From Gonapodya sp. JEL0774 (taxonomy: Eukaryota): DNA of 64,000 bases. Within the stretch, counting starts at the first letter, position 1. The number at the start of each line of letters is the position of its first letter. Made by a program: the position numbers and the translations under genes. Shown piece by piece: positions 705-27,631 of the stretch. The notes beneath the pieces are model-generated. The model ran no database searches, was not told the DNA's origin, and saw only the letters and a list, made by a program, of their open reading frames with translations. The stretch spans positions 1-64,000 of the forward strand of contig JADIIX010000031.1 of assembly GCA_027604505.1 (NCBI GenBank), in the 5' to 3' direction.

Positions 705-1000
705 TGTAAAGGATATAAAGAGAATCCAGCACTCTGCCCCTGTACAGGTTTTGCCCCCATAGCCTAACAGGTTATGAGCCTGGACTGCTGACAGGAGAGG
801 TCACATGTTCGAACCCCAGTGGGGGGAAATTTTCCAATGTGGTGGCATGCAAAACTATGAGAGTTTGACCCTTAAAAATAGAGATTTGTCCTGGGTCGGG
901 CAACCCTGAAGCAGAGATGCTGTCTTCAGGGGGAGTGTAAAGGATATAAAGAGAATCCAGCACTCTGCCCCTGTACAGGTTTTGCCCCCATAGCCTAACA
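705..1000 (+). mobile_element. Miniature non-autonomous LTR retrotransposon (TRIM), copy 1, 296 bp
   Basis: Identical 65-bp direct repeats at 705-769 and 936-1000 (TGT...ACA). 5-bp TSD ATGTC at 700-704 and 1001-1005. Copia-type PBS GGTTATGAGCC at 770-780. PPT AGGGGGAG just before the 3' LTR. Confidence 0.95.
753..826 (+). other. tRNA-like sequence (Pol III A-box/B-box) spanning the TRIM 5' LTR, PBS and internal region
   Basis: 74 nt. GCCCCCA...TGGGGGG acceptor-like stem, TAGCCTAACAGG A-box-like, CCTG/CAGG anticodon-like arm, GTTCGAACC B-box. The T-stem does not pair. Confidence 0.65.
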
Positions 1001-4000
1001 ATGTCTGAAATATTTGCAACCCCAAATTGTAGCGAATGCTTCAAGGGTTCTCGTGTCCCATTTGCGCTTGGCAGGAGTCAAACGCTTACTCCCATAACCA
1101 ACCACGTATTCATGACCATTGCCATCACATTGACTCAGAATAGCACCCAGAGCTATCTTAGACGCATCCGTTTGCAAATAAAATGGTCAACTATAGTCAA
1201 CTCTTTGTAAAACTGGTTGAGAACACATGCGATCTTTGATCTTCATGAACGCATCATACGCTGGACCAGAAGTCAAGTCAACTATGCCACCTTCCACAGT
1301 TTGATCAGTCAATGGCGCTACCAGATGCGCAGAATTGCGTATGAAGTGCCTGTAGTACCCTGTTATGCCCAAAAATCGTTGGTGCTCTTTCAGCGTTTGT
1401 GGGATTGGAAAGCCCCTCACTGCGTCAATTTTCTTGGAATCCATTTTGATATTACCATCATTTGTGATGACATGACCAAGATCTGATGTCTTAGCTTGGC
1501 AAAAGGAGCATTTTGCAGCTTTGATCTTCAAGTTTGCCTCTCGCAAACGCCGGAACACTTCCTCAATGTGTTTCAGATGATCATCAAACGACTTTGAGAA
1601 TATCAAAATATCATCAAGATACACGAGAGCAAACTCCCAAGATATGCCACGTAACACTGCATCCATTAAACGTTGAAAGGTTGCAGGTGCATTTGTCAAC
1701 CCAAAAGGCATTCGTCAAAATTGCAATAAACCACAATGCGTACGAAACGCAGTCTTTGGACAATCTTCTTCAGCAATTTCTACATTCCAATAACCCCATG
1801 TTATATCAAGCGCAGAGAAGTAACCGGCACCTTGTGTTGCCTCAAGCATATCATCAATGCGCGGCAAAGGATAAACATCCTTTTTCGTGACGGCATTAAG
1901 TCTACGGTAGTCGACACAAAAGCGTAGCTTTCCGTCCTTCTTCGGCACCATCACAACTGGAGCTGACCAGTCACTGACTGAATGTTCCAAGATACCATCA
2001 AGCAACATTTTATCAGACGCTTCGTTGATCTTAGCCCGATCACCTGGACTAGAGCGATATAGTGGTGCTTTTATTGGTAGAGCATCACCTGTTGGGATAT
2101 GATGTTTAACGCTTGAAATATAACCTGGCTTATCACCAACACTGAAAGCATCTCGATTGCAGTGTAGCAATTCTTTCAAACGGCCGAGTTCTTTGTCATT
2201 AAGAACTGTTTTGGACAAATCAAGACCAGGGATACCTAGGTCAGGAGTATCAATGGTGGGAACCAAATTTGTTTTTGGCTCAAGTATCTTCCCATCACGT
2301 GAGAAACGCGGAGAAGGATCACATGGCTGCTGGTCGTCATTTGTTGATATGAAATGAAAGTCTTTTGTATTGATCAACTCAAAGTGCGCTATGCGTGCAC
2401 CTTGGAGACAAACAAGTCTTTCTTTGTCCAATTCGTCAGACTTATCCAAGCTTCGCCATTGGACTCAAAAGTTTGCACACCATGCGGAACCATAAGACCA
2501 TCGCGTGCCGCATATAACGGACTAGGCCGGACGAGAGCGTCTCTGCCCGCGATATCTTCAATTGAGAATGACGGTGCGCATGAAGGAATAACTTTCACTG
2601 CCACAGATGATTCCCTCGGCACAGTTATGTCTTCCATCAATGCAAGAACGGCATCGCTTGCATCAAGAATCACTTCATGTGATTCAACACTTAACTTTGC
2701 AGGATCTGAGTAACCCAATGTTTTAATAGAAGCGTTCTGTGTCAATGGGAACTGGAGCATTGCAGCTGGCCAATCGATCAAAGCGCCAGAGTTCTTGTGA
2801 TAGCGCGTACCAAGTATTACAACACTTTGTAATCCTGGAATAATATGAAGCCATGAATACAATTGTCGACCGTTCTCAACTTGCACAGGGACATGTATTC
2901 TTCCGACTGAGTACGACGTTGTACCAGTTCCTAACACGATGAAAAATTCACCGACCTCAGATCTACGAGGATCCTTGCGACTATTCAAAAAGTTCTGTGG
3001 CCAAAACGTTTTTGAAATGGCATCAAAGTTGCAACCTAAACCGAGCATTCCTTTTGCGGGTATATCACCAACCACAGTCTTTACATCAGCTGTGTGATGT
3101 TTTAAATTCTCGGCAGGTGGTTCAGTATTCAGCTGCTCAATATTCAAGAGATGACCATCAGGACACTCATTCAGAAGATTGCTTTGATGACTCCAAACAG
3201 CAGCAGCGTTTCAATGTGACGTTATTGCAGGCTCCAAATTCATTTGCAATTCAGCGATATGACATGGACTATTGTCAAGTACAATCGTAGTACCACGCAT
3301 CTCATCATTTGGAATTAATACAGAATTTGCGTCAGTTGCGGGACCAAATTGGTGGGCAAAGTCACAAATCTGCTTAATGAAAAGTTGCATGTTGCGTTAG
3401 AACACTTGCCATTTGCCGACAAGCCGTCAGACTTGAACTCCCAAGAGTAGTCACATACCACTCAGTCAGAGGAGTGACCATTCAAAGCATTCAATTCAGC
3501 TGCGTTATCATTGCAGGGCACTTCAGGGTTCCGCAAAACCTAGTTTCACACATACATTGTGTGGTAACTTTGCCCATGCCTGGAAGCGGTCTACTTCCGA
3601 TCATTGTTCCACTTATGTCAGTCAAACTAACGTTGGATGTGCTCTGAACATCTGGGAGTGGACTGTTCCCGCTGACGTGTACGACTCCATGCCTGGCAAT
3701 GGCAAAGAGAAGCGGCATACGTAAGCTCTTGAGTCAGCCAAACAGAAAAAGGAAAGGCAAGGATGGCATTTATTGTCAGCGCTGACAACGTGCACATGAG
3801 CCAATCAGCTAGCAAACTCCTAGCTCTTTGGCCTTAAAGCTAGTTTCATGCTAGCGCACTCTCGCACAGTTGATCACATCGCGCAAGCAAATACCACAAC
3901 AATAGACGCGCAGCTGACAATTTAAGTCGCTAGGTTTTCTGTCTTTGAGCTACCATTTCCCATAGAGCACGCTCAGGTGGTTGTGCTGTTCCAACCCAGC

Positions 4001-4275
4001 GTTGTACGTTTTGGTGGGAGCCTGAATCGTATGAGCTCTGCACTCCACCTTGAACACAGAACATAGCGTGAAATGTGGAACACTCTACATATACAAACTT
4101 TGATGTCATAGCAGTTGGCCAATGTGAAGTTCGTTTATCACAAACTCTGCAAACGTGGCATCTCAGCGGATCTACTCATCTGAATCACGCCTATTGATGG
4201 TTTCTCACACGCTCAGCGCGCCAAAGACAAGAGAAGTGTGGTCTCAAGCTTTCAAAACTGCAAAATTTCAATCTT

Positions 4276-4572
4276 TGTTAAGCTATGGTGGCAAACACCT
4301 GTACAGGGGCAGAGTGCTGGATTCTCTCTTTTATCCTTAACACTCCCCCTGAAGACAGCATCTCTGCTTCAGGGTTGCCCGACCCAGGACAAATCTCCAT
4401 TTTTAAGGTCAAACTCTCATAGTTTTGCATGCCACCACATTGGAAAATTTCCCCCCACTGGGGTTCGAACATGTGACCTCTCTGTCAGCAGTCCAGGCTC
4501 ATAACGTGTTAAGCTATGGTGGCAAAACCTGTACAGGGGCAGAGTGCTGGATTCTCTCTTTTATCCTTAACA
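4276..4572 (-). mobile_element. TRIM copy 2, 297 bp, inverted relative to copy 1
   Basis: LTRs at 4276-4342 and 4507-4572 differ by one indel. TSD ATCTT at 4271-4275 and 4573-4577. Internal region nearly identical to copy 1. Confidence 0.95.
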
Positions 4573-4842
4573 ATCTTAGAGTTGGGAACATTTGCTCAAT
4601 GAACATGTTCACAGCACTCAGAGTACCACATAACAAGAAGTTTGATTCAAAGCTCACTCGCGTATTCAAACATAAGCTATCACAAGCTTTCTCATTGTGC
4701 TTCTCATTGTCACAAATATTTCACCCCCCCTCCCCTTTGGTCTTCATTTGAGTCAGAGGGGTCCATGTGTTGTCTCCAGAATAACATCTATATGTGGATG
4801 TTTATTTTACAAATGTATCCAAGGTACCTTCTCGATCAATTT

Positions 4843-7800
4843 TTATGAAGTTATAACTAATCTAAAGTCGGGTACAAATGGTTCCAAAGACAACTTGGAA
4901 AACTTGAACAAATCCTTTTGAAATACATCCGCGAAGTTGACAGGATGTCGTGCAAATTGGAATCTCCTGCCCAGTGTCATATGTCGGACAAATCCATGAT
5001 CACCAGAATTCTTTGTAATAAAAATTAACGCGGCACATGCGAACAGCCCACCATCATATAGGTTTGATTGTTGAGGCCAATCCTGTTGGACTATAAACTT
5101 AACCTCTGCATCAATCATGTCCAGTCCAATTCTCTTCCTGATTCCTTCGTTCATGTGTGCAACTGCATCATGGTAGTGGTCAGAAGGGTGGCGAATGGAG
5201 TCAAAAAGTACCCAACACTTCAAAGGAGGATGATAGACTGCCGCAAACCAATGAAGATTTCCTTCGTTGTATGTCGTCATAATAAAGTTCGCGTTTCGTG
5301 CATCTTGAAGTAAATTAGATGTCACTGAGCCTGGTCTGGGGTTCACTTCGCCCAGGTTTGATTCAGGGTTAGTATAGTGCGAAGAGATATAGAAGAGGCT
5401 GGTTGATTCAGCAGGGCGTTCTGTGTCCTCGTGGGTAAGCCACCGACCAAGATTGTTTATTGGTGAGTCTGATAGCCAGATTCCCAGAAGGAGGCGCCTG
5501 AGTTCCTTGTCAAAGGATGTGACACCAGGATGATCAGTTATCCCTTCATCGAAGATCCATCCGGCCGCAATTAATTCGTGGCTTGCTCCATCTACCACAC
5601 CCCCTGTTGGCAGAAATTCGAACCACAGAGCAGGAGCCGCCACAGCAAAGGGAGTTTGATCATTGAGAACATCTGGCTGTACAATTTCGAATGTTCGCCG
5701 ACGGCGCTTTGGAGTTGGAGCAGCAATTGCATCGTCCATGTGGTCAGACAACCGCTTTGGAATAGTTTTTGCGAAAGAAGTAGATCCACGTTTGAGGAAA
5801 AGTTGAGCATCAACAAGCATGTTTTCGATGTCCTGATCTTTGCACCCCGTCAAGTCAGGAAGAGACTCCACAATTTCATCCACATCCACATCCAGTGTTG
5901 CAGCAGTCTCCCAAGTGCTTTGGGTGAATGGTAAGCCATCCCACAAAGTGAGATACTCCCAACGATCAAGTGATGGACCGCCTGTATTGCAGCAAGCACG
6001 TGTAAGTGTTGTTCATGTAACAAAGGTTGGGGGTTTGAACTCACATCGCCGTCGAGCCATCAGCGCCTTCACTTCAAGATCCTTCGTTGGGTGCGTGTTA
6101 CTTTTTTGAAGTATGAGCATTGCGGATACATTGCTGACAGAAACCGTGTTTGGTAGTTTTGCAAGTTGGTAGTGAGGGTAGAATCTTGATGTGGATGTTC
6201 CTGGGAGGTCCCGCGTTTTTGCTGGTCCAGGAGTGATCCACTCAAGCTTGTAGTTGTAGTCTTTAGTGTGTATAATCTTCGCAAGAGCTTGGTATGGGTC
6301 TTTGCCTTTGGCAGGTCCAGCTGAGCGCCTAACAAGAACAACATCCCCGACCTGGAAAGGTGGAGATAGCGATAAATTTGCCAATGACCTGGTTGCAAGG
6401 GGTTCGAAGATTTAGATCAACAGAGTGCGATTAATTTTCGCGTTCTTACCTTGCAAGATCTCGAGCGGCGACTTTTTGCATGTGCTTCTTAGCATTGAGC
6501 ATCATTTTTGAATGGGTGGCAGGGTCGTAGACTACATCGGGAGGTGGATCTGACAATATCCATTTTGTTATGTTAGGTTACATTCACTTTGGATGCTGAA
6601 AACACTAACCCTGTCCTGGAACAGCATAAAAGTTCCGATCTGTCTTTCCATAAAATAATTCATATGGCACGGCATTAGTTGTTCCATGTACCTCGTGATC
6701 AATTGTGTTGTTGACAGTTGGCAAGATGTCTCGAAGACGCTCAAGGCTCAAAGTAGATTCTTGAATGTTGAGCTCCTTCAACACTTTGCGGATACGGTTC
6801 TTGAGGAAGCGATTGCGATTCTCGATGGCACCTTGTGTCGAAGGCTTGTAGGGGCTTCCATGCCGGATCTTGATACCATGGAGCTGGTGGAGTTTCTCGA
6901 ACGCCTTCGAAACAAATTCGCCTCCGTTATCAGAGAGTGTTGAATCAGGCATACCGCCTTCCTTGCTCCACTCCATGATAGAGTCGACTACATTCTTCGA
7001 TTGCTTCATTGAGGGTTAGACCTTTCTCCACTTAAAATTTCTAATAATAGAATAAACGTACCTTTGTGAGGAAAGCGTTAGCGAATCCTTTTTTAGATAG
7101 GTGGTCGACTCCATGTAGAATCCAAAAGCGCCCGAATTTTGTGTAGTCTATCACCCACTTGAAGTGAGGTATGAAAATGAATTAAACCACAGGACTCATC
7201 TGCTTCTGGGTTGTCACTCACCAACTCATTAGGTCGGGAGGTGATGATGGGTACCAAAGGCGCCCTGGATGGTAGCGGTTGTTGCAGGACACATACCGCA
7301 CATGTCAGAATTGTCTTTTCGAGGATCCGGAACAGTCCGCGGGCATAATAGTTCATCACAAGTTTCCTCCACAAGCGCCACAAAGAAGAGTGACCACCAG
7401 CCACAGAAGACGTGTGTACATGCTGAATCGCACGGTTGATTTCGTCCGCAGAGCATACGACCTCACCTGCAATGCAGACTCTTATGGGGCTTGAAAGAAT
7501 CACTCACCATTCTTTTCCAATCCTTGCGATGTGATTTGTTCACATTCCCTTTGCAATGAACCGGTAGTGCTTTGGGGATACAGTTGTTCAGTAGATAGAG
7601 TTCAATCTCAGAATGTTTATTAAGGTAGTCGTCGATTGCATCTTCCGTATCGTCGTCCAACACGTGGTCGGCATCTACATTGCCAGCGCCAGATGTAGAA
7701 TGCGTGACATCCTCGGATGTGGGAAATACATCGCTGAGGTTCGAGATGACTGTTTCGAGTATGTTCTTAAACGAAGATTCTGTTGGTTCTCCACCAACAA

Positions 7801-8050
7801 TGTATTCTTCGCCTGCGACAAGTTCAAAGCGACCGTTCCTCGTCAAAATGGTTCGATTGGGTGCTGACTTTGGTAAGAGGTAGACGTCCAACGGATTTCC
7901 CTGAAGTCTAAACAGCTTCTGCAGCTCAGGGGCGGTGAAAGATGTTTTGTGGAAGAAGTGAGTCTTGTTCAGTTGAAATTTGTTCACAAGAGTGACGGGA
8001 TCTCCTATTTTGTTGTTGAGGTGATTGAACCCTGCTGCAAGATTCACCAA
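4843..8050 (-). CDS. Multi-exon transposase: HHCC zinc finger, DDE integrase, SH3-like C-terminal domain, chromodomain, Ulp1/C48-like peptidase (5' end not resolved; possible frameshift near 7480)
   Basis: HVH..GGH...CAVC; spliced core WVIDYT..VDHLSK..SDNGGEF..SPYKPSTQGAIENRN; FQVGDVVLVRR; spliced EVKALMARRR..WEYLTLWDGLPFTQSTWE; NLHWFAAV..FDS..QQSNLYDGGLF. GT-AG introns join these segments. Confidence 0.85.
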
Positions 8051-8263
8051 AGCGACCGAATGGTGAAAACAAAAATGGCATCCTAAATGGCACCCTACAC
8101 AAAAGGACTACGCTGAACTACTTTGACAATCGTCTGAAGAGAAAGGAACTCGATAACATAGCAAGGGACAGGGATTGCGAAGATAAGGTGAGCACTGATG
8201 AGGATATCAGGCAGAGGCTGTCAGGCCGGGACGACGGGAACAGGGAAACGCCTCATGCACAGT

Positions 8264-9171
8264 AGTTGTCCGCCGGACGCTCTCAGACTCTCTCAGTCAA
8301 GCATCAAGTCGTCTGTTGGATGATTTTCTATCGACGTTGCGGACCTGTATGTCAAGCATCAAGTCGTCCGCCGGACGATTTTCTCTCGCTGCTTCTGATT
8401 GCCTCTGTCAAGAATAAAGTCGTCTGCTGGACGATTTTCTCTCGTCACTACGGAACTCTATGTCAAGCGCTAAGTCATCCGCTGGACAATTTTCTACTGT
8501 TGGTGCGGAACTGTATGTCAAGGATTAAGTTGTCTGCCAGACGATTCTCTACAATCGCTGATAATACTCTCAGTCAAGCGCCAAGTTGTCTGCCGGACGA
8601 TTTTCTTGCGTGTTTTCTGATACTCTCAGGGAAGTGCCAAGTCGTCCACTGGACAACTCTCTTCCATCACTGTGGAACTCTCTGTGAAGCATCAAGTCGT
8701 CTGGCGGACGACTTTCTCCCCTCGTGGAAAAAGTTGCCCGCCGGACGACTTGACTACTCTCGACTCTTTTTTTCTTGTTTGAAGTCGTCCGGTGGACGAA
8801 ATTACTCCTGGCTCTGTGATTTTGTTGTTCTCTCGTCAGGTCGTCTGGCGGACGACTTTCTCCCCTCGTGGAAAAAGTTGTCTGCCGGACAACTTGACTA
8901 CTCTCGACTCTCTTTTTCTTGTTTGAAGTCGTACAGTGGACGAAATTACTCCTGGCTTGGTGATTTTGTGGTTCTCTTGTCAGGTCGTCCGGCAGACAAC
9001 TTGACTACTCTCGACTTTCCTTTTCTTGTTCGAAGTCGTCCAGCGGACGAAATTACTCATGGCTTGGTGATTTTGTGGTTCTTGCGTCAGGTCGTCCGGC
9101 GGACAACTTTCTCCCTCGTGACAAAAGTCGTCCGACAGACGACTTGACTACTCTCGACTTTCCTTTTCTTA
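8264..9171. repeat. Tandem array of ~18 palindromic AAGTCGTCCG(C/G)CGGACGA(C/T)TT motifs
   Basis: Motif recurs at ~8307, 8361, 8417, 8472, 8527, 8583, 8639 and 8694 (~55-bp period), then as a ~144-bp higher-order unit (37+51+56 bp). Confidence 0.92.
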
Positions 9172-9370
9172 GGGCCCGTACGGCACTGGTTTTTTTGGGC
9201 ACAAATAATCGATTATTGGGGAAAGTGCACTATTTTGCGTGTTCGGCACTGCACAATATGAATAATGGTTGAACGCAAATAATCGATTATTTGGGTGGGG
9301 CCAAAAAATCGTGTCCAGGGGCGATTTTTGAAACGATTTTTCACCGCACTATCCACAATCCACCTCGAAA

Positions 9371-10494
9371 ATGCCCCCAAAGGCAGCTGCTTCAAGCGCG
9401 CAGGGACCAAAAAACAATAAAGGAAAAGGAAAAGTGGGCGGAGAGGACGGGCAAGGGGATGCAGGCGACGATAGGGCGAAGTGGGGAGTTCAAGAGAGGG
9501 AGTTGAAGCTCCTGGAGACGCTGAATTACTGGGCGCCAAAACAATCCGCTGGCAGGTTCACCAAGTTGTGGCCGAACATTGTTGCCAACTTCAACAGGCG
9601 TGCCAGGGTAGAGTACGACAAGGACAAAATCAAACGGAAGCACGACGAGCTCAAGCGGATATACACAATATTCTGTAAGGCCAGAGAGCGTTCGGGTGCA
9701 GGAACTGTACCAGGGAAGCCCTGGATTATCACGATGGCACCGGAATCCTGGGAGGAGTTCATAGAGGTGATTGTTTCTGAACGTTCTTTGTCGGCGATTG
9801 GGTTTCGCGATTAAAACAGTATCTAGCACCACCCTACGGCCTCCATTTTCCGCGAGAATGGGTGGCCTCTCTTCATTGAGGCGGACAAGCTATGGGCCAA
9901 CACGAAGGCTGTTGGGGAGTTTGCGGCAAGTGCCGTGGACCTCCCACCAATCGAGGATGATACTGGCATAGGATCGCAAGAAGTTGATACAGGAGACGTG
10001 GAGTATGCACCGGATGGGGAGGTTGAAGGTACGTGTCTCGATGTTTTTTGCAAACTGTGTTCTACCACGCTGAAACTCAACGTACAGACACCGCACCTCA
10101 TCCTCATCCATCGCGCACGCCTACACCCAACTCAGTGATGCCGCGCCGGGATTCGGACGTGAGTGCTCCCCGGAGTGTGGCCCCAACAACCCGCAAGCGC
10201 AGGAGACAGGACACACCGGACCCTCAGGAGCCTGTGAGGATTGCTGGACTGGAACAGATCGCAGAGGCTCTTTCTCAGGGCTTTGGGCGAGCTCAGAGCG
10301 GGGGCTCTCAATCGAACATGGTGTTTGAAGCCCTCACAGCCGCTTTGGAAGATGGATTCTCGGACATGGAGAGAGCCAGGATGGGGAGCATATTTGCGTC
10401 AAACCCCGTGACTGCAATGGTCTTTATGGGGCTTCAGACTGTTGGTGCAAGGAGGATGTGGTACGACAAGGAAGTTGCAGCCATGCGAAAGTAG
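9371..10494 (+). CDS. Harbinger Myb/SANT-like DNA-binding protein (3 exons; introns ~9767-9826 and ~10029-10087)
   Basis: AKWGVQERELKLLETL...FTKLWPNIVANFN...DKIKRKHDELKRIY; position inside the Harbinger TIRs. Confidence 0.9.
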
Positions 10495-10574
10495 CATACT
10501 AAAATAGTGGGAATGTTATGTGATGTATCAAATAGGGTTACAATCAAACGTCTACATATATTCCAAAATGTCCT

Positions 10575-11934
10575 CTACGTGTCGATTACTGGTGGTGCAC
10601 GATATCCACGCTCCTGCCGAATCGCCACGTAATCGTCCCACATCTTCTGTGCAGTACGTTCCCTCCACACCAAAGCAGGATCCATACGCGGCAGCCGCCT
10701 TGCAGAAGGAGGAACAACATCTACTTCAGCCGGGTACGGGTTTTGGCGGACAAATTCATGAGCAATGTCATCACCCGCTCCAAATGTATGGTGGTGGATA
10801 AAATTGTGTATAACTATACACGCCACAACCACCTGCACCTGAACGCGGAAGTCCAGAAACTTTGTGCCGTGTGCCAGGGCTTGGGTTCGCATCTTAGCAA
10901 CCCCAATTGCCCTTTCGACGGCATTCCTCAGTGACGAGTGCCGCAAGTTATGGATTTCGTAAGGTGTTTCAGGTCTACCAGTGTAGTAAATCCAGGAAAA
11001 AGTGTTATTATTAATAAAGGAGTTGTTTCCAAACTTTTGACGTGCAGAACACCCACCTCTTCCCATGGTCGGCCCACTCCTTCAGGTGGTATCGCACTCC
11101 ATTCTTATAAGGAGTCCTGAAGTACATGTTGTGTTCGTATCCAGCATCAACAAGGTACCATCGCCCTTTGGGCACCCGAAATCCACCCCGGTACAGGGTG
11201 TCTCCCAGGACAGTCCCGTCATGAGCGGAACCTTCATATCCTGCATAGACATAAGTAAACCGTCCATCAAAGTCCACTGCCACCAACACATTTTGCGAGA
11301 GGAATCCCTTGCGATTCATGTACGCGACCTGGGCATCCCCAGCTGGCCGGAACGCTCGGATATGCGTGCCATCAATTGCACCCACGCAACCGTCAAAGTA
11401 CGGCCAAAAACGTCCATTTGCCGTAATCCGGGTGGATATAGGAGTATTTTCATTTGGTTGAATGATGTAATCACTTGCGAGAGCACGTAGAGCAGAGATT
11501 CCCGCCCGAATGTAACAGGTTACGGTTGAGAGCGAGTGTTGGAATCGCAAACGCGCAGCACGCATAGAGACACCATGACCGAGGTAGAACATGAGCATCG
11601 CAAGCTGCTCATCAATGCTCATCTTGCAGGTGTCCAGGAGCAGCCGACGTGTCCACGTTTCCGCTACCAACGACCTGAACACGGGAAGTGGCATCCGAAC
11701 ATTGTCCAAGGCCATCTCCTTGTGTCCGTTTAGAATTTCGTACGTGAGGCGCTCCCCCTGAAGAACAGAGTTGGTCATCGGGCGGGGAATCGCTCGAAAA
11801 ATGCGTCTTTGCGCCGTGACGATGGTGGCGACAGCGGCAATCGCACATCAAACCGCCGCCATCACGGCCAGACGTTCCTCGTCGTCACTTATGATCATGA
11901 CGTCACCATCGTACGCGGGGATTCCGAGATCCAT
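10575..11934 (-). pseudogene. Harbinger DDE transposase (intron 10975-11056; in-frame TGA at 11850-11848 after the ATG at 11934)
   Basis: CVGAIDGTHI, NRKGFLSQNVL, GYEGSAHD, YLVDAGY, NLRHSSLRNAVERAIGVAKMR. Could still be expressed from the ATG at 11778. Confidence 0.93.
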
Positions 11935-12070
11935 CGCGTGTACTGTGTTTCGATTGAAGTTTGGTGGTGTTCGGCCAAAAAGTCACCCGAAAAATCACTT
12001 TTCCCCTATAATCAATTGGGACCCCCCCATAATTGATTATTACAGAAAACCACTGCTGTACGGGCCCTTA

Positions 12071-12202
12071 TTTGAAGTCGTCCGGCGGACGAAATTACAC
12101 CTCGCTCAATCTCTCTCTTGCACAATCGTGAAGTTGTCCGCCGGACGACTTGACTACTCTTGTCTTTCGTTATCATGCATCAATTCGTCCGGCAGACGAA
12201 GT
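12071..12202. repeat. Continuation of the palindrome array (3 copies) after the Harbinger insertion
   Basis: AAGTCGTCCGGCGGACGAAAT at 12075, AAGTTGTCCGCCGGACGACTT at 12131, AATTCGTCCGGCAGACGAAGT at 12182. Removing the Harbinger restores a complete repeat unit. Confidence 0.92.
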
Positions 12203-12340
12203 CACATCCTCAAGGGATGTACGGAACATGCAATGGCATGTTTGCCGGAGCGTTCAGGAGGAAGGCTGTGGCATTGAATGAGTTACGTGTGTCTTGTTCT
12301 GTTCCAAAATCTAACATGTCTACACCCTGCAGAAACGCCA

Positions 12341-15300
12341 ATGCCACCTAAACGCAAACCTGCACAAGACGGACCTATGCGCCAGAAGCGTCGAGGAGCA
12401 GAAGACGTTACAGACACCGGTGAAACCGCCGACATGGAAGTAGTTGAATCCAATCGTGAGTGATTGTTACATAAAAACAGAATATATTCTAATGTTTTTG
12501 TTTGTAGCCGAGTCGCTTTCTATGCTCATTGAGACGTGGTCCGAGCCTGCTCACCGAGGTATCCAAATCCCAACACGGTTGATTGACACATCGCAGTTCA
12601 AGAACATCCGAGTGGTGTCGAAGAAGCACCCTGTTTACAAAGAGTTGGTGTGAGTATTAGTGTTCGCAATTATATGGAACGAACGATTAACATGCAACCG
12701 TGGATCAGGCGCCGCATGAGGACCAATGGTCCCGAGAAGAATCGTCCTCTTCTGGCAAAATGGAAAAAGAACTATGGGCGTACTGCATTCGCAAATCTTG
12801 GCGAGCTATTCCGGAAAGCAAAGACTGAACTAACGGATCTCGTTGATGGTTTCCATCGGTATGTACTTGTCACATTTTGCGATTAGTCTCGATGTCAATG
12901 TTAGTTTTGCACATGCAGCCAGGAAGGAGCAGTCGAGATAAACGAAGAGGATGGTGACACTTCAAAGTGCCACAACCAATGGATTATAGCCCTCCGGGTA
13001 TGTTTTCTGTTCAACTCACTTACGCGACAAACCTTACGTTCACATCCCTACCTTAGTGGGACACTCCGGCTGACGTGCTTCGCAAGCTTGCCTTCCTCTC
13101 AAACAACTTGGACGGCCACTCCATTGCTATGGATGTATTTGACCAGGTGAAGTATGTGTCGGACGAGATCGATGCATATATTGCGAGGAATCCTGGGACC
13201 AAACGGGACAGCGTTCAGCCTGTCACAATCGCGAAGCTCCTCCCAAACACAGGAGCTGTAGGAGAGAAATGGACAGAAGTCACCACACTTCGAAAACTCA
13301 TGGTGATCGTGAACTTTTTTGATTCAGTACGTTATGCAATCGATGATTTGTTCCGCTCACGTGCTGATTATAGATCATCATCCGATTAGGTCAAAAACAG
13401 GATTTACGACCATTGCCATACTGGTCTACTCAGTTTCATTAACATGCACTTCAACTTTGCCACAAGGGCGCTGAAGACTGAGGAAGATCAGGTACGTGAA
13501 TAATGCAATTGTTTATGAGAGCTCACACCAGGAAATAAGTTGTTTGCTACCAGCACAAATACCTAGACTACCTCCTCAGCCAACCTTCCCGTGTGACGGA
13601 AGCCCAAGCAAGAGCGTGGTTGGAAAACTTTGCGCGCAGGAAAGCCCTTCGTGAGACGTTGGAGAACAGCAAGTTGGTCCTTGCGGAACGTCTTCCGCAG
13701 ATGCAATTCGACCTGCTTTTCAGGGAGATTGAGAACAGTGCGCACCTTTCATTAAATTTTCCTACATAAACCTAACGTACACTTTTCACTTCATAGGGAT
13801 GTATGACGACAATCCTGATGAACTCAGAGCCGCCATAGAATCAGCAAAAAATCCATCGCCATCGAAGGAACCTCCTGCGCAGGAGATCACTGACCTCGAC
13901 AAAGATGTCTCCCCTCCGGCCCGCCCTGATTTTGGTGTCAAAACCGAGACAACAACGGTTTGCGATGAGATGGCGCTTGGAAGTGCTCCAGAAATTGTAC
14001 ATGACACGGACAATGGAGAGGGCAACGAGGGCGTACAGGTGGTGAAATCGGATTATGATGACAATGACGCCGGTGTGGATATGGACATGGATGGGCCCAC
14101 CAAATCCCGCAAGAAAAACACCTCCTCCGTATCGAAGTCAAAACTATCCGGAGATAAGGTTGACAAAGACGAAGACGAAAGCTCGAGGCGAGTCATTTAT
14201 CATATGCTGCCTTCTCACCGTTGATTTCTTAACACCAATTACGTTTCAAGGGCACCACTCCGTATGCCTTTTGAATTGGCCGAGCCCGCACCGACCGTCA
14301 TTCTTCGCCCCCCAATACGTTCAGCTGGTGACAACAGCAAACCTCTACACGCCCACATCAATAGTGCGTCCATGGTTGTGGTTGATCTGGATCGAGTGGG
14401 GTCTGAGGTGAAGCCAACCTTGGACCTTGCAGGAAAACTTGCAGTTGGCACAGGATGGATTGTTTTGGTGAGTCTCATGTTTACAAACAGCTTGTACGAT
14501 CATGAAATATGGTTGGTACCCTTCCAGCACACTTCCAAGTGGATCGCATTATCAGAAGCACAGAAAGTTTTCCTCTCCGAGTTGGAGTACGAGAACCGCA
14601 AAATCTTCTTTGCAGATGACATTGCGACATGGATGGATCACAAAGAGAAGAAGCTCCATTACTTCCTGGTTGCGCAATGCTTTCTGCAAAGCACAACTAG
14701 CTTTAAAGTGGAAGCACCCTTTGTGGGTCAGCTGCCTCCTTCCAAAGGAATGGATGATGCTTTGAGATTGGCGGTGGGTTTTGTGTTTCGTCATTCAGCA
14801 TAGAACTTACTCTCATCTTCATTTTATAGGGCGACCCTGACCTGCAAGTGCCCATAACTACCGCAGCCTACATCATCCACCAGCTTACCAAAAAGGAAAA
14901 GCTCATCATTGACCTCGGTTGTGGAGCGCCAGGATTTGGAGGTGCTGTACTTTTGACCAATCGCAAGTACATTGGGATCAAATCTGTCACTGATGTAGCT
15001 GGATCTGCTTTGAAGTGCCTTACATTGCTTCATCAAACGTTTGTTGAAGAGAAGGGGGCTCTTGCTGCTAAGTAAGTTATAACGGTTTCATTCTATGCAC
15101 TGTTTGTACACCTTGCCATTTAACTTGCAATTTATAGGTACATTGAATACACTACGTTGAAGTCCGTAGACGTGTGGACAGGTAAAGAGAACGTTCTCCA
15201 TCCACGCCTCCAGTTGAGACCACCCACACCTCGTCAGTCGGCAACTCCACTCAAGACTGGTGTCATCGAGACACGTTCTTTGAAGCGTTCACGAGACAAG

Positions 15301-15441
15301 GATGACACTGAGGAGAATGTAGATGAGGGAGCTTCAGACCGCAAGGGGACGAGAGTAGCACGTAGGTCTTCCCGCCTAACGCCTAGAACTCGATGCTTCA
15401 TTGAGAAATACTGCGTCGATGTACAGGCAAAGGATGACTGA
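12341..15441 (+). CDS. Multi-exon cargo gene: N-terminal ParB/Srx-like domain, acidic linker, degenerate beta-class N4C/N6A DNA methyltransferase-like domain
   Basis: Spliced NIRVV..YKELVRRMRTNG..PLLA..LVDGFHRQEGAVEI..LRKLAFLSN (ParB-like). C-terminal NSASMVVVDLDR...DPDLQVPITTAAYIIHQLTKKEKLIIDLGCGAPGFGGAVLLTNRKYIGIK resembles the N6_N4_Mtase C-terminus. About 10 short introns keep the frame open; one needs a GC donor near 14189. Confidence 0.72.
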
Positions 15442-15776
15442 AGCAAATGTAGATGTAGGATTATCAATACATATTCAAACACCATCTTTCACAAACCATA
15501 GAGGGCATAAGATAAGAGGGAGAAGTTCATGTTGGATCTATAGTGTACGTACAGATATGTAAGGAAACATGAAATAACAGGGCTGCCCAGATAAGAAATA
15601 CGTAAGGGGCAAACAAAAATAATTCAAGACAGAATGATTTCGGGGCAGGGTTAAATCAGGATATGGGGGAGGGGGGGTGAAATTTTTGTGACACTCATAT
15701 CACTCCACACAAAGTGTCCGATAGAAAGTTTGTCCGAAAAGAAAAGTGTTTGCTGCACACCGAACAATTTGATCAC

Positions 15777-17573
15777 TCACGCAGCAGCATTGTTGCTTGA
15801 ACCGTGACCTCTTGTGGCTTTCTTCACAAGATACTTCAGCTGACTTTTAGAAGGAGGGCTGGAGCACGTCTCCGCCAAGTGGTTCTTCCCACTACAATTG
15901 AAACATTTGATGAAAAACTCCCCAGGATTCTCAGCATTGTAATTCCTTCTGTTACAACCACCACCAGATCCACCTTGATACCCTCCATGGTATCCACCAT
16001 GATATCTGCCATGGCAATAGAAACCACTTTAAGAGTGATAGCCTCCACAACTGCGCATTGGTCCGCCACCAGGGTGATTGTCACCTTGGTTTCCATTATT
16101 CTGGTTGTTACTGTGGCCACCATTGCCATTCTGCATGTTGTTGAGTGCAGGTGGTTGCAGCATCACCGGAGTCTGCACTGGTGGAGTGAGCACTACTCCA
16201 TCAACAACAGTCACACTCGCAGGTAACAAGAGGCGGGGTGTATCATTCACACGAGCTCTTGCCAACAAAGCATTGCAACACGGCAGCGCATTCCCTTGAT
16301 TGCACACACCAGCAAGCTGAGTTGCGATTATGTTTCCAATAACATGAAACAACACTTCTTGTTGTGCCATTCGTGCAGCCGCTTGTCTCGAGTCTTTGAT
16401 TCACGTCAAGCATACGCCTCAACACAAACAAAGTTGTTACACAGTGTAGTGATAATATCATTGATGGTTGTACACGCTGCAGAGCCATTAGCGTTGATGA
16501 ACTAGTGCTATTTCATATCACAAAACAAGCTGAGAGCATTGTCAGTCATGCTCTTGTTGACAATCAAGTTCACTGCAAAAGCGAACAAGTCTCAGAGGTT
16601 CTGAATCGGCCAATTATGCAAACCAATAATGGAGTACGGTCCCAGCGGTGCAGGCGATGACCTTCGAAAGCGGTGTGAATATGTGCTGGCAATAGCGGTA
16701 AAACTGCTGTTTTGACACGTGCAGTGTTGATCTTGCCACTCTGCAATGCACCAAGACATGCGACAACAATGACGCACATCCCATAAAAGTAGTTGGATCC
16801 TGTCTCATATGGTTTTGCATTAGAATCTTTGCTGAAGCATTCAAGACTGTCATTAGTCCCACTTTCAAGGCCATTGTCAAGACCATCATTCTCAGGCCAA
16901 CCAACATCTCGCAGTATGCCAATAGGAGGTAACGCATAGCTGCTCTCCAACCACACAGTTGCTACTGGCAACATTTGCAACCTTGGAAAAGCAGCAGTTG
17001 GGGGATCAGCAGCTTGTGCCGCTCGCATCTCAACTGCGGGGGGTGGTGCTACCGTCACTGTAGCACCATTATTCACTTGTCTTACTGCCTGGTTGCTTCT
17101 GTTCTGCTCATCACAACTAGCGTTTGTAGGCAATACATTGGTGCAGCGGCGGAAGGCAATACCACCGTAACCGAACCCAAGTTGATGCTGCAAATCAGCA
17201 ATGGCAATCTGCATTGCCCTTATGGTATCTTTTTGGCTACAATTCACGCGTTCTAATCCGGTAATACGTGCTACACCAACAGGTGTGGATGAGCCAGTAG
17301 CACTCATAGTCCTTTGACAGACAAACTGACCGTTCACATTTTCATTGTCCTCTAACTCCATCTCATCTTGAGAGGCGTTTGTGTTTCCTTGCCTAGCACT
17401 GTCGTTAGCTTCAGCTGATTCACAGGCTTGAGAAGCATTCTCTGACCACGAGTGCATTTGCTCACTTCCTCAAAGTCCTTCTCACTCGGACCATACGGGA
17501 CATCACTGTTTCTTCCATTGTTTTCCAATTCAATATCAACAACAGGCGTGTTCTTGTTGGCCTGCTCAGACAT
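15777..17573 (-). pseudogene. Decayed gag-like ORF with CCHC zinc knuckle; probably the 5' part of the Gypsy element at 96-3147
   Basis: N/G-rich region followed by KCFNCSGKNHLAETC (~15870-15910). Same strand as the pol; abuts the Ginger TSD. Confidence 0.7.
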
Positions 17574-17904
17574 TTCGAACGTTGGCGAGTTTTCGCCGAG
17601 TGAGACAAAACCAAGAAAAACTGGTCCAGACCCCTGGAGAAGCAACGCGGAGGAAAAAATGTTGCAGAGAGCAAGAGAAAGCAAAGAAAAGTGTTGATGC
17701 TTGCGCTCTGGTTGACGTGACTTGAGTGGGAGACAGCGGCAAAATCGAAGTTCACAAAAATGATCGTAGAAGAGTTGAAGGCATCCCAAGCAGCCCAGAG
17801 ATTGTTGCGGTTGTTCCCCCACTTGTGGAGAACTGCACGGGATGGATTGAAGGGGTGGGAGTGTATGATGGTGTTCAAGGTGTAGAATATATTCACTATC
17901 TACG

Positions 17905-19960
17905 TGGCTAAACCCTCACACATAGACCCGTTCCATCGCAGTACATGTCCTTCACCAACAAGCCTGTTGATGTGCTCCACAACTCCGTTCTGTGCAGAAG
18001 TGTCTGTAACAGTTTTAAACATTTGCACTCCCTCTTTCTCCAGGCGACCAGCAAATTCTGCGGCCATAAACTTGCTGCCCATGTCCACCCACAGCCTTCA
18101 ACTTCTCCCCAGTCTGCCGTTCAACCCACACATTCCAAGCGTCAAATGCCTTTGCGGCATTCCTTTTTCTGGTGAGTCCATAAGCCCATACTTTGCTTGT
18201 ATAGTCATCCACAATGGTTAACCAGTATCGTGCATTCTCCACAGAAAGAGCATTTGCCTCCCCCAGATCCATATGCATGAGACCAAGAACTTTCGTGGAA
18301 CGAGGACCATCAGAAGTTTTCCAATTCAAGCGCCGGAAAGTTTGTTTCCCTTCCATATAGAGTTGACACGCGACTGCAATGTCGGTTGGTGTCTTGATAT
18401 TCAGGCCACTAACATGACCTTCGCTGATAGTTTTCCAAACCCGCTCAGGCAACTGATGCCCAAACTGTTCATGCTGCAAGAGAGCAGGATGAACTGTTGC
18501 TGAAGTATCCGAGATACTGATGAGTAGACTGTCTGGAGGTTCACTGAGGTGAGTTGGATATCCTTGAACCGCGTACAAATGGGCCCCTGGGATCTGGTTG
18601 ATGAAACAGACATGATTACTGTCCTTTCTGATTTCCAGGCTGTGATCTCTTCCAAAAACTTCGCAACCGCTGTCGGCAAAAGAAGAGTGTGTGATGACCT
18701 TGCTGTGCGACAATGGTGCAAACAGTGAGTTCGTGAATTTCAGAATGCCACTTGGCTTTCCTGTCCGGTCCATGGTAGTAATGTTCATTGTTCCAACATT
18801 CCTCCATCTGGAATTGTCACCCCTGCCTGCTCAATGAGCTTCCTGTCTTCAAAATCATCTGCGACTCAGGACATACTGCAAGTCGCACCGGAGTCCCATA
18901 TCAACTCTGTCTGAGAGCAGGTCTGGTGAGTGGCGTGAGAGTCCATTGCTGAGATGGTAAATACATGAGTGTCCATTTGATTCACAAACCCTCTGTTCTT
19001 CTCCTTGCCTTTCCCTGCACCGCTCTGATCATCCTTTCTGCTGCTGCCGCTGCATCCCCCATTCTTCTTCGAATGATCACACCACAATTGCGGTTCTGCT
19101 GTGGTTTTTTCTTCCTACAATCATGCGCCATGTGACCGTAAGTACCGCACTTGTTGCAGTTGCTGTGGAAGTGTTTCGAAGTTGAGCTCTACGTGCTTGA
19201 GAATGTCTTTCCAACCTTATCCAGTTGACTATCATCCCTCTAAATTTGCTGTTCCGCCTGGACTCACATCATTTGGAACAATTCCCTGGTGAGTGTCCCC
19301 TGTGTAGGTAGCAGTCCCGCCATTTCTAACTTTGAGCGGTACTTTTTAGGTAGACTGCTTTGCCCACATCATACTTCCGCCCCTCCATCTCGCAAAACTG
19401 CCTAGCCATGCCACCCTTGTCCGTGAGGTGGGTGAGGATTGACTCGCCTGGTGGTATATCCCGTTTGTTGAGTTTTACCGCGTAGTTCTATCAAGTGTGT
19501 AACCAGGTTTGGTTGGAATGTCTGGAGAATGGCTGTGTACATGAGTGCAGAAGTGTACTCTCTGGGATCCGAAGGTAAGTGTTTGAGTATCAGAGTCAGC
19601 AGACTCTTGTCTATTGCCACAATAATGAGGACCTGCGCAACCCTTTCCTTAGCCCACCACTCCTCCAGTTGCCGTAGCTGCCATGCAGACACCCGCAGCA
19701 ACACCTCCCTTGCCCTCATCTGCACCAACACTGGTACCGGGGGCCACAGGTGAGCTGACTGGACTAGCCAACAGCTTTGGCACTTCACCCAGTATGTACT
19801 CCAAGATTCCTAGCTGGTTTGCAATGGTGCTGAAGGCCGTTTTCCAGCTATCTAGGTTGCTGCCAAGTATTAACCTTATGCCGACAAACTTGATGTTAGA
19901 ATTGCTGACTGACATTAAAGGTGAGTCTTCCGCAGTTGACTTAGAGTTCAGTTGCACTGT
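17905..19960 (-). pseudogene. Decayed Ty1/Copia gag-protease-integrase, truncated in the integrase
   Basis: GSNLDSWKTAF..LGILEYILGEVPK; CCHC knuckle ~19120-19150; IWDSGATCSMS; LLQHEQFGH; MHMDLG..YWLTIVDDYT; QNGVVEHINR. Confidence 0.92.
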
Positions 19961-20990: not shown

Positions 20991-21333
20991 ATCGATTGAT
21001 TTCAATATTCTTTATGTTCAGAAATAACGGCCTCCTTTTTATGGTTCGGAGTAGGAACCTTGTCTTGAGTCTGCAAAAAGACCCATTCATGATTGTCCGC
21101 AATATTGCAGGTGTTTTCAGAATGCAGACACCTGGTCCAAAAAATTGTGCACACAAAATTACGAGTCCCTAAACTATTCCTGCAATTCCTCCACATCCAG
21201 ACGTCCCCGTCCAAAAATTCAAATGGAATTACAATGGCTGAGCATATCGGAATTGAATCATGTAGGTTTAGTCCGAATCGGACCAGGTACTACTGACTCG
21301 GTCCAAAGGTGGCGGCATTGGCTTTCCCCCAGC

Positions 21334-21510
21334 ATCCAACGCTAATGACGGCGTCTCTGCCGTGCCAACTCAGAATGCATTTACGTCTCCCCCAAAAGGC
21401 ATGGCTACTACAAAAGCTAACCTAACTCCGTAAATGTATGTACCGTGCACGAAACATATTGTGTGTGGAACTGAACACTCTCCACTTGGCAAATCAACAC
21501 GTCTCCCCGC
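21334..21510. repeat. DIRS left ITR
   Basis: ~21352-21510 is the reverse complement of ~28115-28272. The first ~28 nt match the ICR. Confidence 0.93.
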
Positions 21511-22228
21511 CCTGGGCCACTGGACGCTCATCCTGCACTCATGATGTGAGTGCTCTGACACTAATTCCACCTGTGGGCATGTGTCATGGGCGATTCCAGC
21601 CAGGGTACAGACAAGGCATGCCTCTCTACTACCACACCATATACGTCCCTGATTTGACCTGAGTCTTTGCCGAGGGCGCTCCACAGCGCCAGAAACCCAT
21701 CCTCTCTCATCTACAGTTGGAAGATGTTGACAGAACCAGGCGAAGTTCTCCCAAATCAAGGTGAGATGGAGGTCCCCTCCAACCGCCAATTGGGTGAGCA
21801 GGCAGGGACAAAAATCCGGTCAGGTCACAGGGAAGTTCAAGCCTGGCGTTGATGCCCCACAAGACAGACTGTGATGGCCGCTTCGGCGCCAGGTGCCTCT
21901 CTCTGCTCTGCTCTTAGGTCAGACAGATGAGGGTATCCCCTCTTTGCACTCCGTGAGGAGTAGCAATTGACATTTGATACAGACCGGCTGGCAGTTGCTC
22001 GATGACAATGCCAGAATGAGACTGCCTATAAGGCCCACTCTATCTACTTTGGTTGTACTCTACTACGTTGACCTCTGGTCTGGTCTGCCCCATCGATGGC
22101 CCAGCAAAGACTTCGAATGTTGATGACATTACAGGGGAAATTGAACGCTTGCGGCGCAAAGCGCAGCTTGAGAACACTTGAGCAGACCTTGGGGAAGCTC
22201 AGAACTGCGGTCGTTGCGCGCCCAGTCC

Positions 22229-23904
22229 ATGTCCGATCCAGACATGCCGTACAATGAAAGTCTCCAGTCATACCATCAGAAACGTGGTCTAGCTTGTTCA
22301 ACCTCTGCTCAGCTGGGCTCTCAGACATCTGTCTTGAGCACTGATGGCTTAGATGCTCCAAGCCCTAGCACTGGCATCTGTGGACACAAAAACAGCACCG
22401 CTGGTACCTACAACCCAGCGTCAAGACCCACTCCGGAGATACATCACTCAGAGCTTCTACACAGCAAACCCTTCGCAATCGACAACTTGTCTGACGGGGA
22501 CTACTGGACCCCATCTGAAAACGCCTCTTTGAACTCTGAAGATGAGGAGGGGGATCTGAAACGAAAGCGGGGTTCCGCTTCCTCCGACGAGGATGAGCGA
22601 CCCACACGCAAAAAGAAGGCTGAACTGGCATTTGACCGGTTGGTGTTCAGACACGACGGACGATGGGTGGTGGCTATGTGTCCACTCACCCTTCCTCTCA
22701 TCACATGGTCTGCTATCTCCCTTCACAGATTCAAAACTGAAGCACCTCTTGCTGAGGTCAACACATCCGTCCAAACACACCTAATCGACAGAGACAAGGA
22801 AGACAAGGCGGGTCTGAAGCACCTACAGTCAGCATACACCGTGACCCACCAGCACACTCTCTCACGGAAATGCTTCCAGAAGTATGCGTTTGACAGAACC
22901 CTCGGACTCAGGGTGGACTGTTTGCTGACATGCAGAAGGGCAGCTCCGCCTCCTCATCTCAGGGTCGCTCCACTGATTACATTACACAGCTGAAGCGTCA
23001 GCATGAAGACGTCGAGAAGACTCACTCAATGACACTCACCAGTCTGAAGGCACATCTCCTTGTTACCTCACACGTTCAAGACACATATGAGGCTATAGAA
23101 GATGACCTCACACAGCAAGTCCAAGACGCAATAAGCAGTGTCCATGCCATGGACGTGTTTGAGAAGCCGGACCCGATGGAGACTGAAACAGCGGAGGTGA
23201 CAGAGGGTGACACAGGTTTGGACACCCCAGTTCACCCACTCCTGACCATGGTTCACCATCTGGCATATGCCCTACACACATACAAAACAGCCACTCAGGA
23301 ACATCATGAAAAGTTACTTGAAGAAGCTGACATCTCGGTCCTTGCCACACAGCACATGCTGGTGATGAACTCAGACATCACTGTGCAACGAGTGCGGACA
23401 GTCCTCGCACTCGGCACACCTTGCAGAGACCTCAAAGCCCACACCCCTGGGAGGGGCTCCAACCCCATTTGGGCAGGGCGTCGGCCCAAGCTGGCCGATG
23501 GCACCTACCATTACGATGCCCAGCAGGACCTTGTCACAGCTAAGGACGTCCCATCTCTTGTGTTGGCAGGACATGAACTATAGGACGTGCTCACCAGGAT
23601 GCGCAAGTGACGGTCCAAACCCTTTTTCGACAGCGCCACTGGAACTCATGGGCGTGGGAAAAGTACACGGAGCAGGTACAGCAGTTATAACCGCTTCAAA
23701 TCCTATTGCGGCAGAAGCAACAGATCATGTTATGGCAGTTATGGTGGATATGGGTTCCGCAGCAGTTACAAGAAGTACTCACAGGATGACTACAAGGGCA
23801 GGGACTCGCGTGACCGTCGTGACTCCTCTCCCCCAAGATCAGCAGGCAACTCCTCCTCCAGGAGTTTTCGCGGACGCGGCTCCAGTCGGAGCCGCGGGAA
23901 GTAA
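22229..23904 (+). pseudogene. DIRS ORF1 (gag-like), with a frameshift and nonsense codons
   Basis: Overlapping ORFs 22178-22993 and 22930-23583 continue through TAG/TGA to an R/S/G-rich tail (..RSFRGRGSSRSRGK) ending in TAA at 23902-23904. Confidence 0.7.
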
Positions 23905-26412: not shown

Positions 26413-26575
26413 CTGTTGTGGTATTGACACCTTGCACATGACCACAGCCTACACATGTATATAAGGCACAACTAGCACCACATAATAAGATCACACTTCA
26501 AATCATCTCACACTCCAGGCCTATCACTAGGCTACCATCCCGTCAATCGTCATAGAGGGCTGAGACCGATACGTA

Positions 26576-27606: not shown

Positions 27607-27631
27607 GCAGTTCATTTGAGCTTTGGGAGAT

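Follow-up and report, generated by a model that had tools for sequence, protein, structure and literature searches.

An accessory gene found in a Ginger-like DNA transposon of Gonapodya sp. JEL0774 is described here. Gonapodya is an early-diverging aquatic fungus (PMC5751038 places G. prolifera among the Chytridiomycota), and the window, i.e. the whole stretch of DNA analysed, comprises 64,000 nucleotides (contig JADIIX010000031.1, positions 1 to 64,000). The balance of the sequence evidence tilts towards the reading, the best overall, that the gene encodes a dimeric protein that would bind the element's own palindrome array and keep the element active. This reading draws on the anatomy of the element, in which 21 copies of a CpG-rich palindrome lie between two divergent genes, the methyltransferase-like back half of the protein, which lacks the catalytic motif, and the ParB-like layout of its front half.

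The accessory gene (12341..15441, plus strand) was modelled by three-frame reading and splicing at 11 introns. It runs from the ATG at 12341 to the TGA at 15441 and encodes 813 amino acids (aa) in 12 exons (12341-12455, 12508-12649, 12709-12858, 12919-12997, 13057-13326, 13390-13491, 13554-13737, 13797-14187, 14251-14467, 14528-14773, 14830-15071 and 15138-15441). The introns are 52-66 nt long, ten of them GT-AG and one (intron 8, 14188-14250) GC-AG, and have a G+C content of 0.25-0.42 as compared to 0.50 in the exons. With the fifth donor at 13327 the protein is letter for letter that of the NCBI model KAJ3341204.1 (Gonapodya sp. JEL0774, 813 aa; P0008 in the following); an 87-nt version of the fifth intron had been discarded for the 63-nt version that gives this identity. 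Because KAJ3341204.1 is a gene prediction, the match represents agreement of independent predictions and not RNA evidence. Judged from the sequence, the gene model can be taken as real. For intron 9 (14468-14527), which keeps the frame and contains no stop, the sequence alone is insufficient to fix the splicing. A branch-point and acceptor-like sequence at 12285-12333, ending 8 bases 5' of the ATG, suggests an intron in the 5' untranslated region. An initial annotation of this DNA had described an open spliced frame with about ten introns and had quoted several motifs. The frame is open, the introns number 11, and all the motifs are in their places (LVDGFHR at aa 130-136, VVVDLDR at aa 520-526, and QVPITTAAYIIHQLT, LIIDLGCGAPG and LTNRKYIGIK).

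The Gonapodya sp. JEL0774 assembly contains four annotated copies of the gene (P0008, P0001, P0002 and P0003), and P0008 shares 93% identity with P0001 and 87% with P0002. A phmmer search of 1.84 billion representatives with P0002 as query (E up to 0.001) yielded six matches, namely P0001, P0003 and four environmental fragments of 55-95 aa with 39-57% identity; none of the six was named as algal. No relatives were found in other annotated fungi, and searches for shorter or longer homologs returned Gonapodya copies only. Against solved structures phmmer gave no matches at E up to 10, and tblastn against phage records gave a single weak match, to a DNA methylase (E 0.6).

The carrier spans 4708..15693 (10,986 bp, or 8,087 bp without the Harbinger insertion described below) and is flanked by the 5-bp target-site duplication CTCAT (4703-4707 and 15694-15698). 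Its 28-bp terminal inverted repeats (4708..4735 on the plus and 15666..15693 on the minus strand) are 96% complementary with one mismatch, and TGTCA at both ends represents TGTNR termini. The transposase gene (4843..8107, minus strand) is arranged head-to-head with the accessory gene and encodes an H2C2 zinc finger, an integrase core with D-D(35)-E, a GPY/F-like stretch (a DPY-bearing segment that resembles GPY/F by eye), a chromo-like domain and an Ulp1-type protease domain (Pfam: Integrase_H2C2 9e-6, rve 4e-8, Chromo 0.014, Peptidase_C48 1.5e-7). Its frame is open from 7461 to the stop (770 codons, five modelled introns) with D-D(35)-E intact. The start codon and the first splice are not fixed, the latter needing a non-standard acceptor or a longer intron. 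In the simplest models the introns 7507-7462 and 7061-7004 (minus strand) have non-YAG acceptors (GAG and AAG), pointing to splice-site decay or a small frameshift near 7465. The catalytic Cys of Ulp1 proteases is expected in a DCG motif. In the Ulp1-like domain (5000-5290, minus strand) His and Asp are kept and LYDGGLF stands at the expected catalytic Cys; in this copy, or in the family, the protease may have no activity. A pattern scan with the transposase gave three 17-residue matches. In the other pattern scans the single genome match was acidic and of low complexity and was rejected.

Between the two genes lies an array of 21 copies of a CpG-rich, 21-bp imperfect palindrome with the consensus AAGTCGTCCGNCGGACGACTT. 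Eighteen copies spaced by 36-56 bp (8263..9145) are located to the left and three (12075..12202) to the right of a PIF/Harbinger insertion (9172..12067), which is flanked by a TTA duplication, contains a DDE_Tnp_4 gene (minus strand) and a Myb/SANT gene (plus strand), ends 270 bp upstream of the accessory gene start and is not part of the ancestral element. Removing the Harbinger element restores a 51-bp step in the 36/37-51-56 spacing pattern, thus the array is older than the insertion. With up to three mismatches 14 matches to the palindrome were detected, as compared to none in 100 shuffles. With up to five mismatches there were none elsewhere in the window and none inside the Harbinger element; one match with six mismatches (47702) is background. 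No exact match was found in viral contigs. The symmetry of the site and the regular 55-56 bp spacing fit a dimeric binder. Taking these features together with the position of the array, the accessory protein would probably bind the 21 palindromes.

Each palindrome carries four CpGs (eight CpG positions). Differences between the copies were commoner at CpG positions (33/168) than at the other core positions (16/168; p 0.013), and all 33 differences at CpG positions were C-to-T or G-to-A, the footprint expected of host 5-methylcytosine (5mC). The observed/expected CpG ratio is 0.55-0.82 in four of the mobile-element regions measured, 0.92 in the Harbinger element and 0.94 at 30-64 kb. The slight CpG depletion of the Harbinger element suggests that its insertion is likely recent.

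The back half of the protein contains a permuted methyltransferase-like domain (aa ~491-712, 14288..15071, plus strand) with GD at 504-505, DLDR at 523-526, DLGCG at 660-664 and K683. In the METHYLTRANSFERASE half the sequence-profile matches fall on the last third of the domain. Pfam N6_N4_Mtase gave E values of 0.01-0.016 (0.01 for the window exon) at 16.3 and 15.6 bits, below the gathering cut-off of 26.7, whereas the sister copy P0001 matched a PHROGs methyltransferase at E 2e-6. The NCBIfam values were 5e-4 for PRK13699 and 0.11 for CcrM, P0008 itself having no NCBIfam match, and a protein atlas gave 0.92-0.94 to N6_N4_Mtase clusters with 161-194 shared features. Motif patterns derived from the C-terminal end retrieved 83 prokaryotic or viral loci (48 + 35), and D/S/N-P-P-Y/F/W was found upstream in 61 of the 83 frames, showing that the retrieved loci are beta-class enzymes; no eukaryotic family member was recognised among them. 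Profile alignment to 31 of the retrieved enzymes gave a probability of 97% and E 1e-11, driven by the C-terminal part that had been used for their selection. When residues 400-515 of an alignment-free model of P0002 (pLDDT 39.5), which make up the N-terminal half of the domain, were compared with known structures, class I methyltransferases made up most of the 50 match rows (Z up to 7.3, rmsd 3.3, 102 residues aligned), and the best Foldseek row of the same model was the beta-class enzyme M1.HpyAVI (E 0.03). Both results agree with a Rossmann-type class I fold, at values short of what these tools treat as clear. These observations indicate that the C-terminal half, judged by its profiles and motifs, is a permuted (beta-class) DNA amino-methyltransferase homolog, more than chance likeness. 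The likeness of the C-terminal block had been noted in the initial annotation and is borne out by the PHROGs and the sub-cut-off Pfam matches; a prokaryote-type beta-class ancestry and a location in a eukaryotic DNA transposon, both proposed there, are likewise supported by the profiles and by the element ends and the target duplication. The element ends, the Ginger-like transposase and the 21-copy array, all found here, had been missed.

The permuted order is kept, GD and the motif IV position (aa 504-526) preceding motif I (660-664). The distance from GD to motif IV is 20 residues in 45 of 57 reference sequences and 19 in the accessory protein, which places DLDR at motif IV and backs the register chosen in the initial annotation. 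DLDR stands at the catalytic DPPY position in all three copies that reach it (P0008, P0001 and P0002), the PPY part being lost, and in the same three the loop that follows motif IV lacks about 20 residues as compared to the references. Motif I reads D/E-L-G-C-G in 5/5 sequences that cover it. At the motif II position P0001 and P0004 have Glu, P0008 and P0002 have Lys, and P0007 has Gly. The Lys seen initially is thus present in the window copy and is not a family trait; its codon is AAA, preceded by C, i.e. one CpG-type step away from the Glu of P0001 and P0004, and, although P0002 also has Lys, it is best read as decay rather than as an adaptive change. In the bdelloid enzyme N4CMT the mutation of SPPY to APPA abolishes activity (PMC8885841). 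Taking this and the DLDR into account, we infer by analogy that the accessory protein very probably makes no methyl transfer and is probably not a methylase. The idea of an altered catalytic motif in what is likely a DNA-binding regulator, already put forward from the sequence, is supported.

In the front half a ParB-like region (aa ~55-200, 12555..13170, plus strand) contains, in this order, N-I-R, M-R-T-N-G, R-P-L-L, a 22-25-aa insertion, D-G-F-H-R and S-N. Compared by eye with 12 phage and 30 chromosomal domains, the order of the motifs and the helix with a conserved Asn follow the ParB N-terminal domain. Of the two CTPase motifs of ParB, GxxRxxA and EN(I/L)QRE(D/N/E)L (PMC11229316), the first reads GFHRQEG, with G and R kept and G at the last position. 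No CTP hydrolysis is claimed. A language-model atlas gave weak matches (0.90-0.92), mostly to viral hypothetical proteins, one cluster having 12% ParB_N, which is a lead only. The ParB-like region is followed by a predicted helical region (aa ~201-365, 13171..13850, plus strand), a candidate DNA-recognition part that is partly conserved in the environmental fragments P0005 and P0006. A ParB fold of the front half appears likely, mostly on context and precedent. A hand-made ParB motif pattern was given no weight; it matched the accessory protein and 0 of 20,000 shuffles but had been designed while looking at the protein, and of 42 real ParB domains it recognised only 5.

These observations could be accommodated in the following scheme. 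In this two-gene Ginger-like transposon the accessory gene, the second of the pair, would encode a protein that binds DNA as a dimer. Its front end, probably of ParB type, would recognise the element's own 21 palindromes; the methyltransferase-like back end, devoid of the catalytic motif, would have no catalytic role and would act in dimerisation and in holding the DNA. Enzymes of class beta are homodimeric (PMC10406627). The protein would coat the control region common to both promoters, keeping host CpG methylation off and the transposase expressed. By analogy with VANDAL transposons, such self-protection against silencing is the most likely purpose, and, with four CpGs in each palindrome, host methylation could in turn switch the loop off. 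Conservation of the folded parts despite the loss of the catalytic motif from the methylase half points to binding, rather than marking, as the core function. In a more far-reaching version, which we regard as doubtful, a portable ParB-parS-like module common to unrelated transposon superfamilies would act here, in a eukaryotic nucleus, as a nucleotide-gated sliding clamp: it would load at the 21 palindromes, with the dead methylase as dimer gate and strand holder, then spread and shield the element from CpG methylation, methylation of the site CpGs being the off switch of the host.

A number of results weigh against a self-protecting, ParB-type protein. The palindromes were evidently subject to methylation, so that protection, if any, did not work in this copy, and only one complete element was seen. 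No ParB match to the accessory protein was found in the Pfam, PHROGs and NCBIfam profiles. With hhalign, the 30 chromosomal, 12 phage and mixed ParB sets gave E values of 0.13-0.61, and 3, 13 and 38 of 40 shuffles scored as high, the query profile being nearly a single sequence across the ParB-like region. ParB HMM scores were within those of shuffles, also when the insertion was removed post hoc. The low-confidence fold models (pLDDT 39.5 and 45.8) showed no match to ParB; the N-terminal model gave helical-bundle matches only (Z up to 7.0, no ParB listed), a result that is uninformative with pLDDT below 50 there. The EN(I/L)QRE(D/N/E)L motif is not kept, the stretch reading LSNNLDG with one Asn conserved in P0005 and P0006. 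The ParB-like context proposed in the initial annotation is therefore visible by eye and plausible, and reached significance in no profile or fold test. For the N-terminal half of the methyltransferase-like domain an unbiased profile test gave only E 0.007, with 1 of 60 shuffles as high, and hhalign offered another motif IV register, RPPI (aa 497-500), RAPI in two copies, also with no aromatic residue. RPPI was rejected as motif IV because it is not conserved and is out of register with the GD dipeptide. Among viral sequences, a ParB-adjacent pattern scan of viral contigs yielded no confirmed relatives among 208 candidate stretches, and five virus records contained no ParB_N.

Conservation of the protein was compared between predicted folded regions and the rest. 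Between P0008 and P0002, 464 of 515 positions are identical in the folded regions and 163 of 208 in the linker and tail (p 5e-5). Between P0008 and P0001 the values are 373/398 and 202/223, a difference that is not significant (p 0.15) and counts against the proposed function. Relative to the positions at which P0001 and P0002 are the same, 26 substitutions are seen in the window copy, of which 8 are CpG-type transitions, 6 other transitions and 12 transversions. Scaled to the whole protein, neutral decay with about 34 private amino-acid changes would be expected to give 1.6-1.8 stops, the probability of none being 0.17-0.20. With this probability and with the partner transposase also open, the view that the open frame marks an unusual survivor is not supported. 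The neighbours noted as decayed are indeed so (a stop near 1715 in a reverse transcriptase and a truncated integrase at 18018-18830), but the element's own transposase is also open from 7461 to its stop. The pattern of conservation suggests that the accessory family was under selection while active and that the window copy may now drift; with its array interrupted by the Harbinger element, this copy is probably slowly decaying.

Many DNA transposons have repeats that are bound by their own transposase. Here too, the transposase or a host factor might bind the palindromes, or these might be a plain promoter repeat, with the accessory protein doing another job such as helping the transposase and the ParB likeness being chance or vestigial. 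The ParB profile and fold tests, all null or inconclusive, favour such an explanation, which nevertheless seems rather unlikely: the array lies directly upstream of both genes and is separated by 3.5 kb from each of the ends, and unrelated transposase families repeatedly show ParB-like genes with inverted-repeat arrays next to them (bioRxiv 10.1101/2025.02.11.637652), an argument that array and accessory gene belong together. Less probable still is an active, non-canonical amino-methyltransferase, targeted to the palindromes by its ParB-like end and marking the element with N4-methylcytosine (4mC) or N6-methyladenine (6mA), as proposed for the algal proteins. Binding of S-adenosylmethionine would be possible, as judged from the GD, the GxG of motif I, the Asp with which motif IV begins and the motif II Glu of P0001 and P0004, and 6mA is a permissive mark in early-diverging fungi (bioRxiv 2026.05.21.726589, PMC8885841). 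Against activity stand the absence of P-P-aromatic in either register (DLDR or RPPI/RAPI) in 3/3 copies, the post-motif IV loop, short by about 20 residues, and the dead APPA mutant of N4CMT (PMC8885841).

Plasmid proteins of the ParB family bridge DNA and silence genes in the vicinity of their sites. A protein bound to the array could accordingly be a repressor or an architectural factor, limiting transcription of its own element or looping the ends for excision, instead of counteracting silencing; ParB spreading and bridging are described in PMC11229316. The anatomy would be identical, and only the CpG-rich site and the VANDAL precedent separate this explanation from the self-protecting binder that we favour; we consider it about as unlikely as an active methylase. 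Domestication by the host, i.e. a gene kept by present selection independently of the transposon, would agree with the frame being open over 11 introns. However, the gene lies within intact ends flanked by a target duplication, exists in several copies (87-93% identity), carries 26 private substitutions (8 of CpG type) and would be open by chance in about one case in five, and relatives in other annotated fungi were not found; domestication is thus very improbable. The dimeric protein binding its own palindromes remains the preferred reading.

Other elements surround the transposon. A reverse-transcriptase element (705-4575, RVT_1), whose frame is broken by the stop mentioned above, is flanked by repeats of about 300 bp that are inverted, not direct, each starting with TGT and containing an internal 65-bp duplication, which is odd for an LTR (long terminal repeat) element. 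A decayed Copia-like remnant (15700-18830, minus strand) adjoins the Ginger-like element immediately at its right end; its truncated integrase fragment (rve E 4e-4) lies upstream of frames with a zinc-knuckle-like stretch. A DIRS-like element of known kind (21330-28324), with 158-bp inverted repeats and an internal complementary region, contains frames for a Dam-like methylase with NPPW (25711-26409, Pfam Dam E 7e-4) and for a probable recombinase (26564-27505). The stretch 38680-61166 contains a group of long frames with few introns, in which ankyrin repeats, coiled coils, SH3 and a ubiquitin hydrolase domain were recognised.

No publication describing this element of Gonapodya, or a Ginger element that carries a gene of this kind, was found in a literature search that covered only a minority of subscription papers and did not extend to Repbase. 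With Ginger1 and Ginger2/TDD as described in PMC2836005 the carrier shares a Gypsy-like integrase, H2C2 finger, D-D(35)-E, C-terminal Ulp1, introns and TGTNR termini. In contrast to the 40-270-bp terminal repeats and the 4-bp CCGG/CCGT duplication given there for Ginger1, it has 28-bp repeats and the 5-bp CTCAT, the length of the duplication matching TDD-4/5. It also adds a chromo-like domain and a second gene, whereas PMC2836005 describes one transposase per Ginger element. Judged by these features the carrier is Ginger-like but departs from Ginger1 in repeat length and in the 4-bp duplication.

The back half shares with beta-class PF01555 enzymes (CcrM, M1.HpyAVI, M.PvuII and bdelloid N4CMT; PMC8885841, PMC10406627) the permuted order and the QxP helix, in part motifs I and II, and possibly the predicted Rossmann-type fold. 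It differs from them by DLDR instead of D/S-P-P-Y, by a short catalytic loop, by DLGCG instead of DPFxGSG and by a Pfam score below the cut-off, and the gene is transposon-borne and multi-copy, not a host gene. A chlorophyte and chytrid adenine methylase family carrying a helix-turn-helix of the ParB type is assigned in PMC4738411 to group 2, not to the permuted type seen here. With bacterial ParB-parS (PMC11229316) and phage ParB-methylase genes the similarities are GxxR in the expected order of elements and repeated palindromic sites adjoining the gene; the differences are the loss of EN(I/L)QRE, the insertion before the GxxR strand and the eukaryotic nuclear setting, and no ParA partner was found among the frames scanned.

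The initial annotation had pointed to the N4C methyltransferases of bdelloid rotifers. Closer precedents exist, as genes with ParB-like and N4C/N6A methyltransferase domains have been published in algal DNA transposons (PMC12477816, which cites Iyer et al. 2011 for green-algal cases). In Sola1-1_Ec32 of Ectocarpus (PMC12477816), as here, a large accessory gene opposite the transposase encodes a ParB-like domain followed by an N4C/N6A methyltransferase domain and is proposed to bind and modify its own element. That element is algal, has a Sola1 transposase and encodes an accessory protein of 1104 aa with a predicted methylase, whereas the present one is fungal, with an integrase-type transposase and a protein of 813 aa that has lost motif IV. 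The algal accessory proteins are likened to the Gonapodya protein by layout and description, not by sequence. The PAG3/PAG2 genes of red-algal (Bostrychia) Plavaka elements (bioRxiv 10.1101/2025.02.11.637652) share a ParB-like protein, adjacent tandem inverted-repeat arrays and a PF01555 methylase in the cassette. According to the same source the ParB likeness of PAG3 is an HHpred match at E 0.29, self-binding is proposed, and the cassette moves between transposon families. In the red-algal elements the ParB part is joined to a 2OG oxygenase-like domain, and methylase and SET are fused in a separate gene, whereas here the ParB-like and methylase-like parts are in one protein. Capture of DNA-modifying genes by transposons is common (PMC12730594, bioRxiv 2026.05.21.726589).

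ParB-plus-methyltransferase genes and palindrome arrays having already been published for brown and red algae, what is new here is the fungal, integrase-type (Ginger-like) carrier and the catalytically eroded methylase. The design proposed in 2025 for algal transposons is thereby extended to an early-diverging fungus and to a Ginger-like carrier, in a compact system consisting of one 813-aa protein and one 21-bp site, with a sister copy that has the motif II Glu. VANC of the Arabidopsis VANDAL transposons is likewise a transposon-encoded accessory protein and counteracts host methylation at the repeats of its own element; this is a functional analogy and no sequence relation is claimed, the function having been shown in Arabidopsis and being suggested here by analogy. 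If binding of the palindromes is true, the accessory protein would be the second transposon protein, after that of VANDAL, to act on its own sequence, and the first derived from a bacterial segregation fold.

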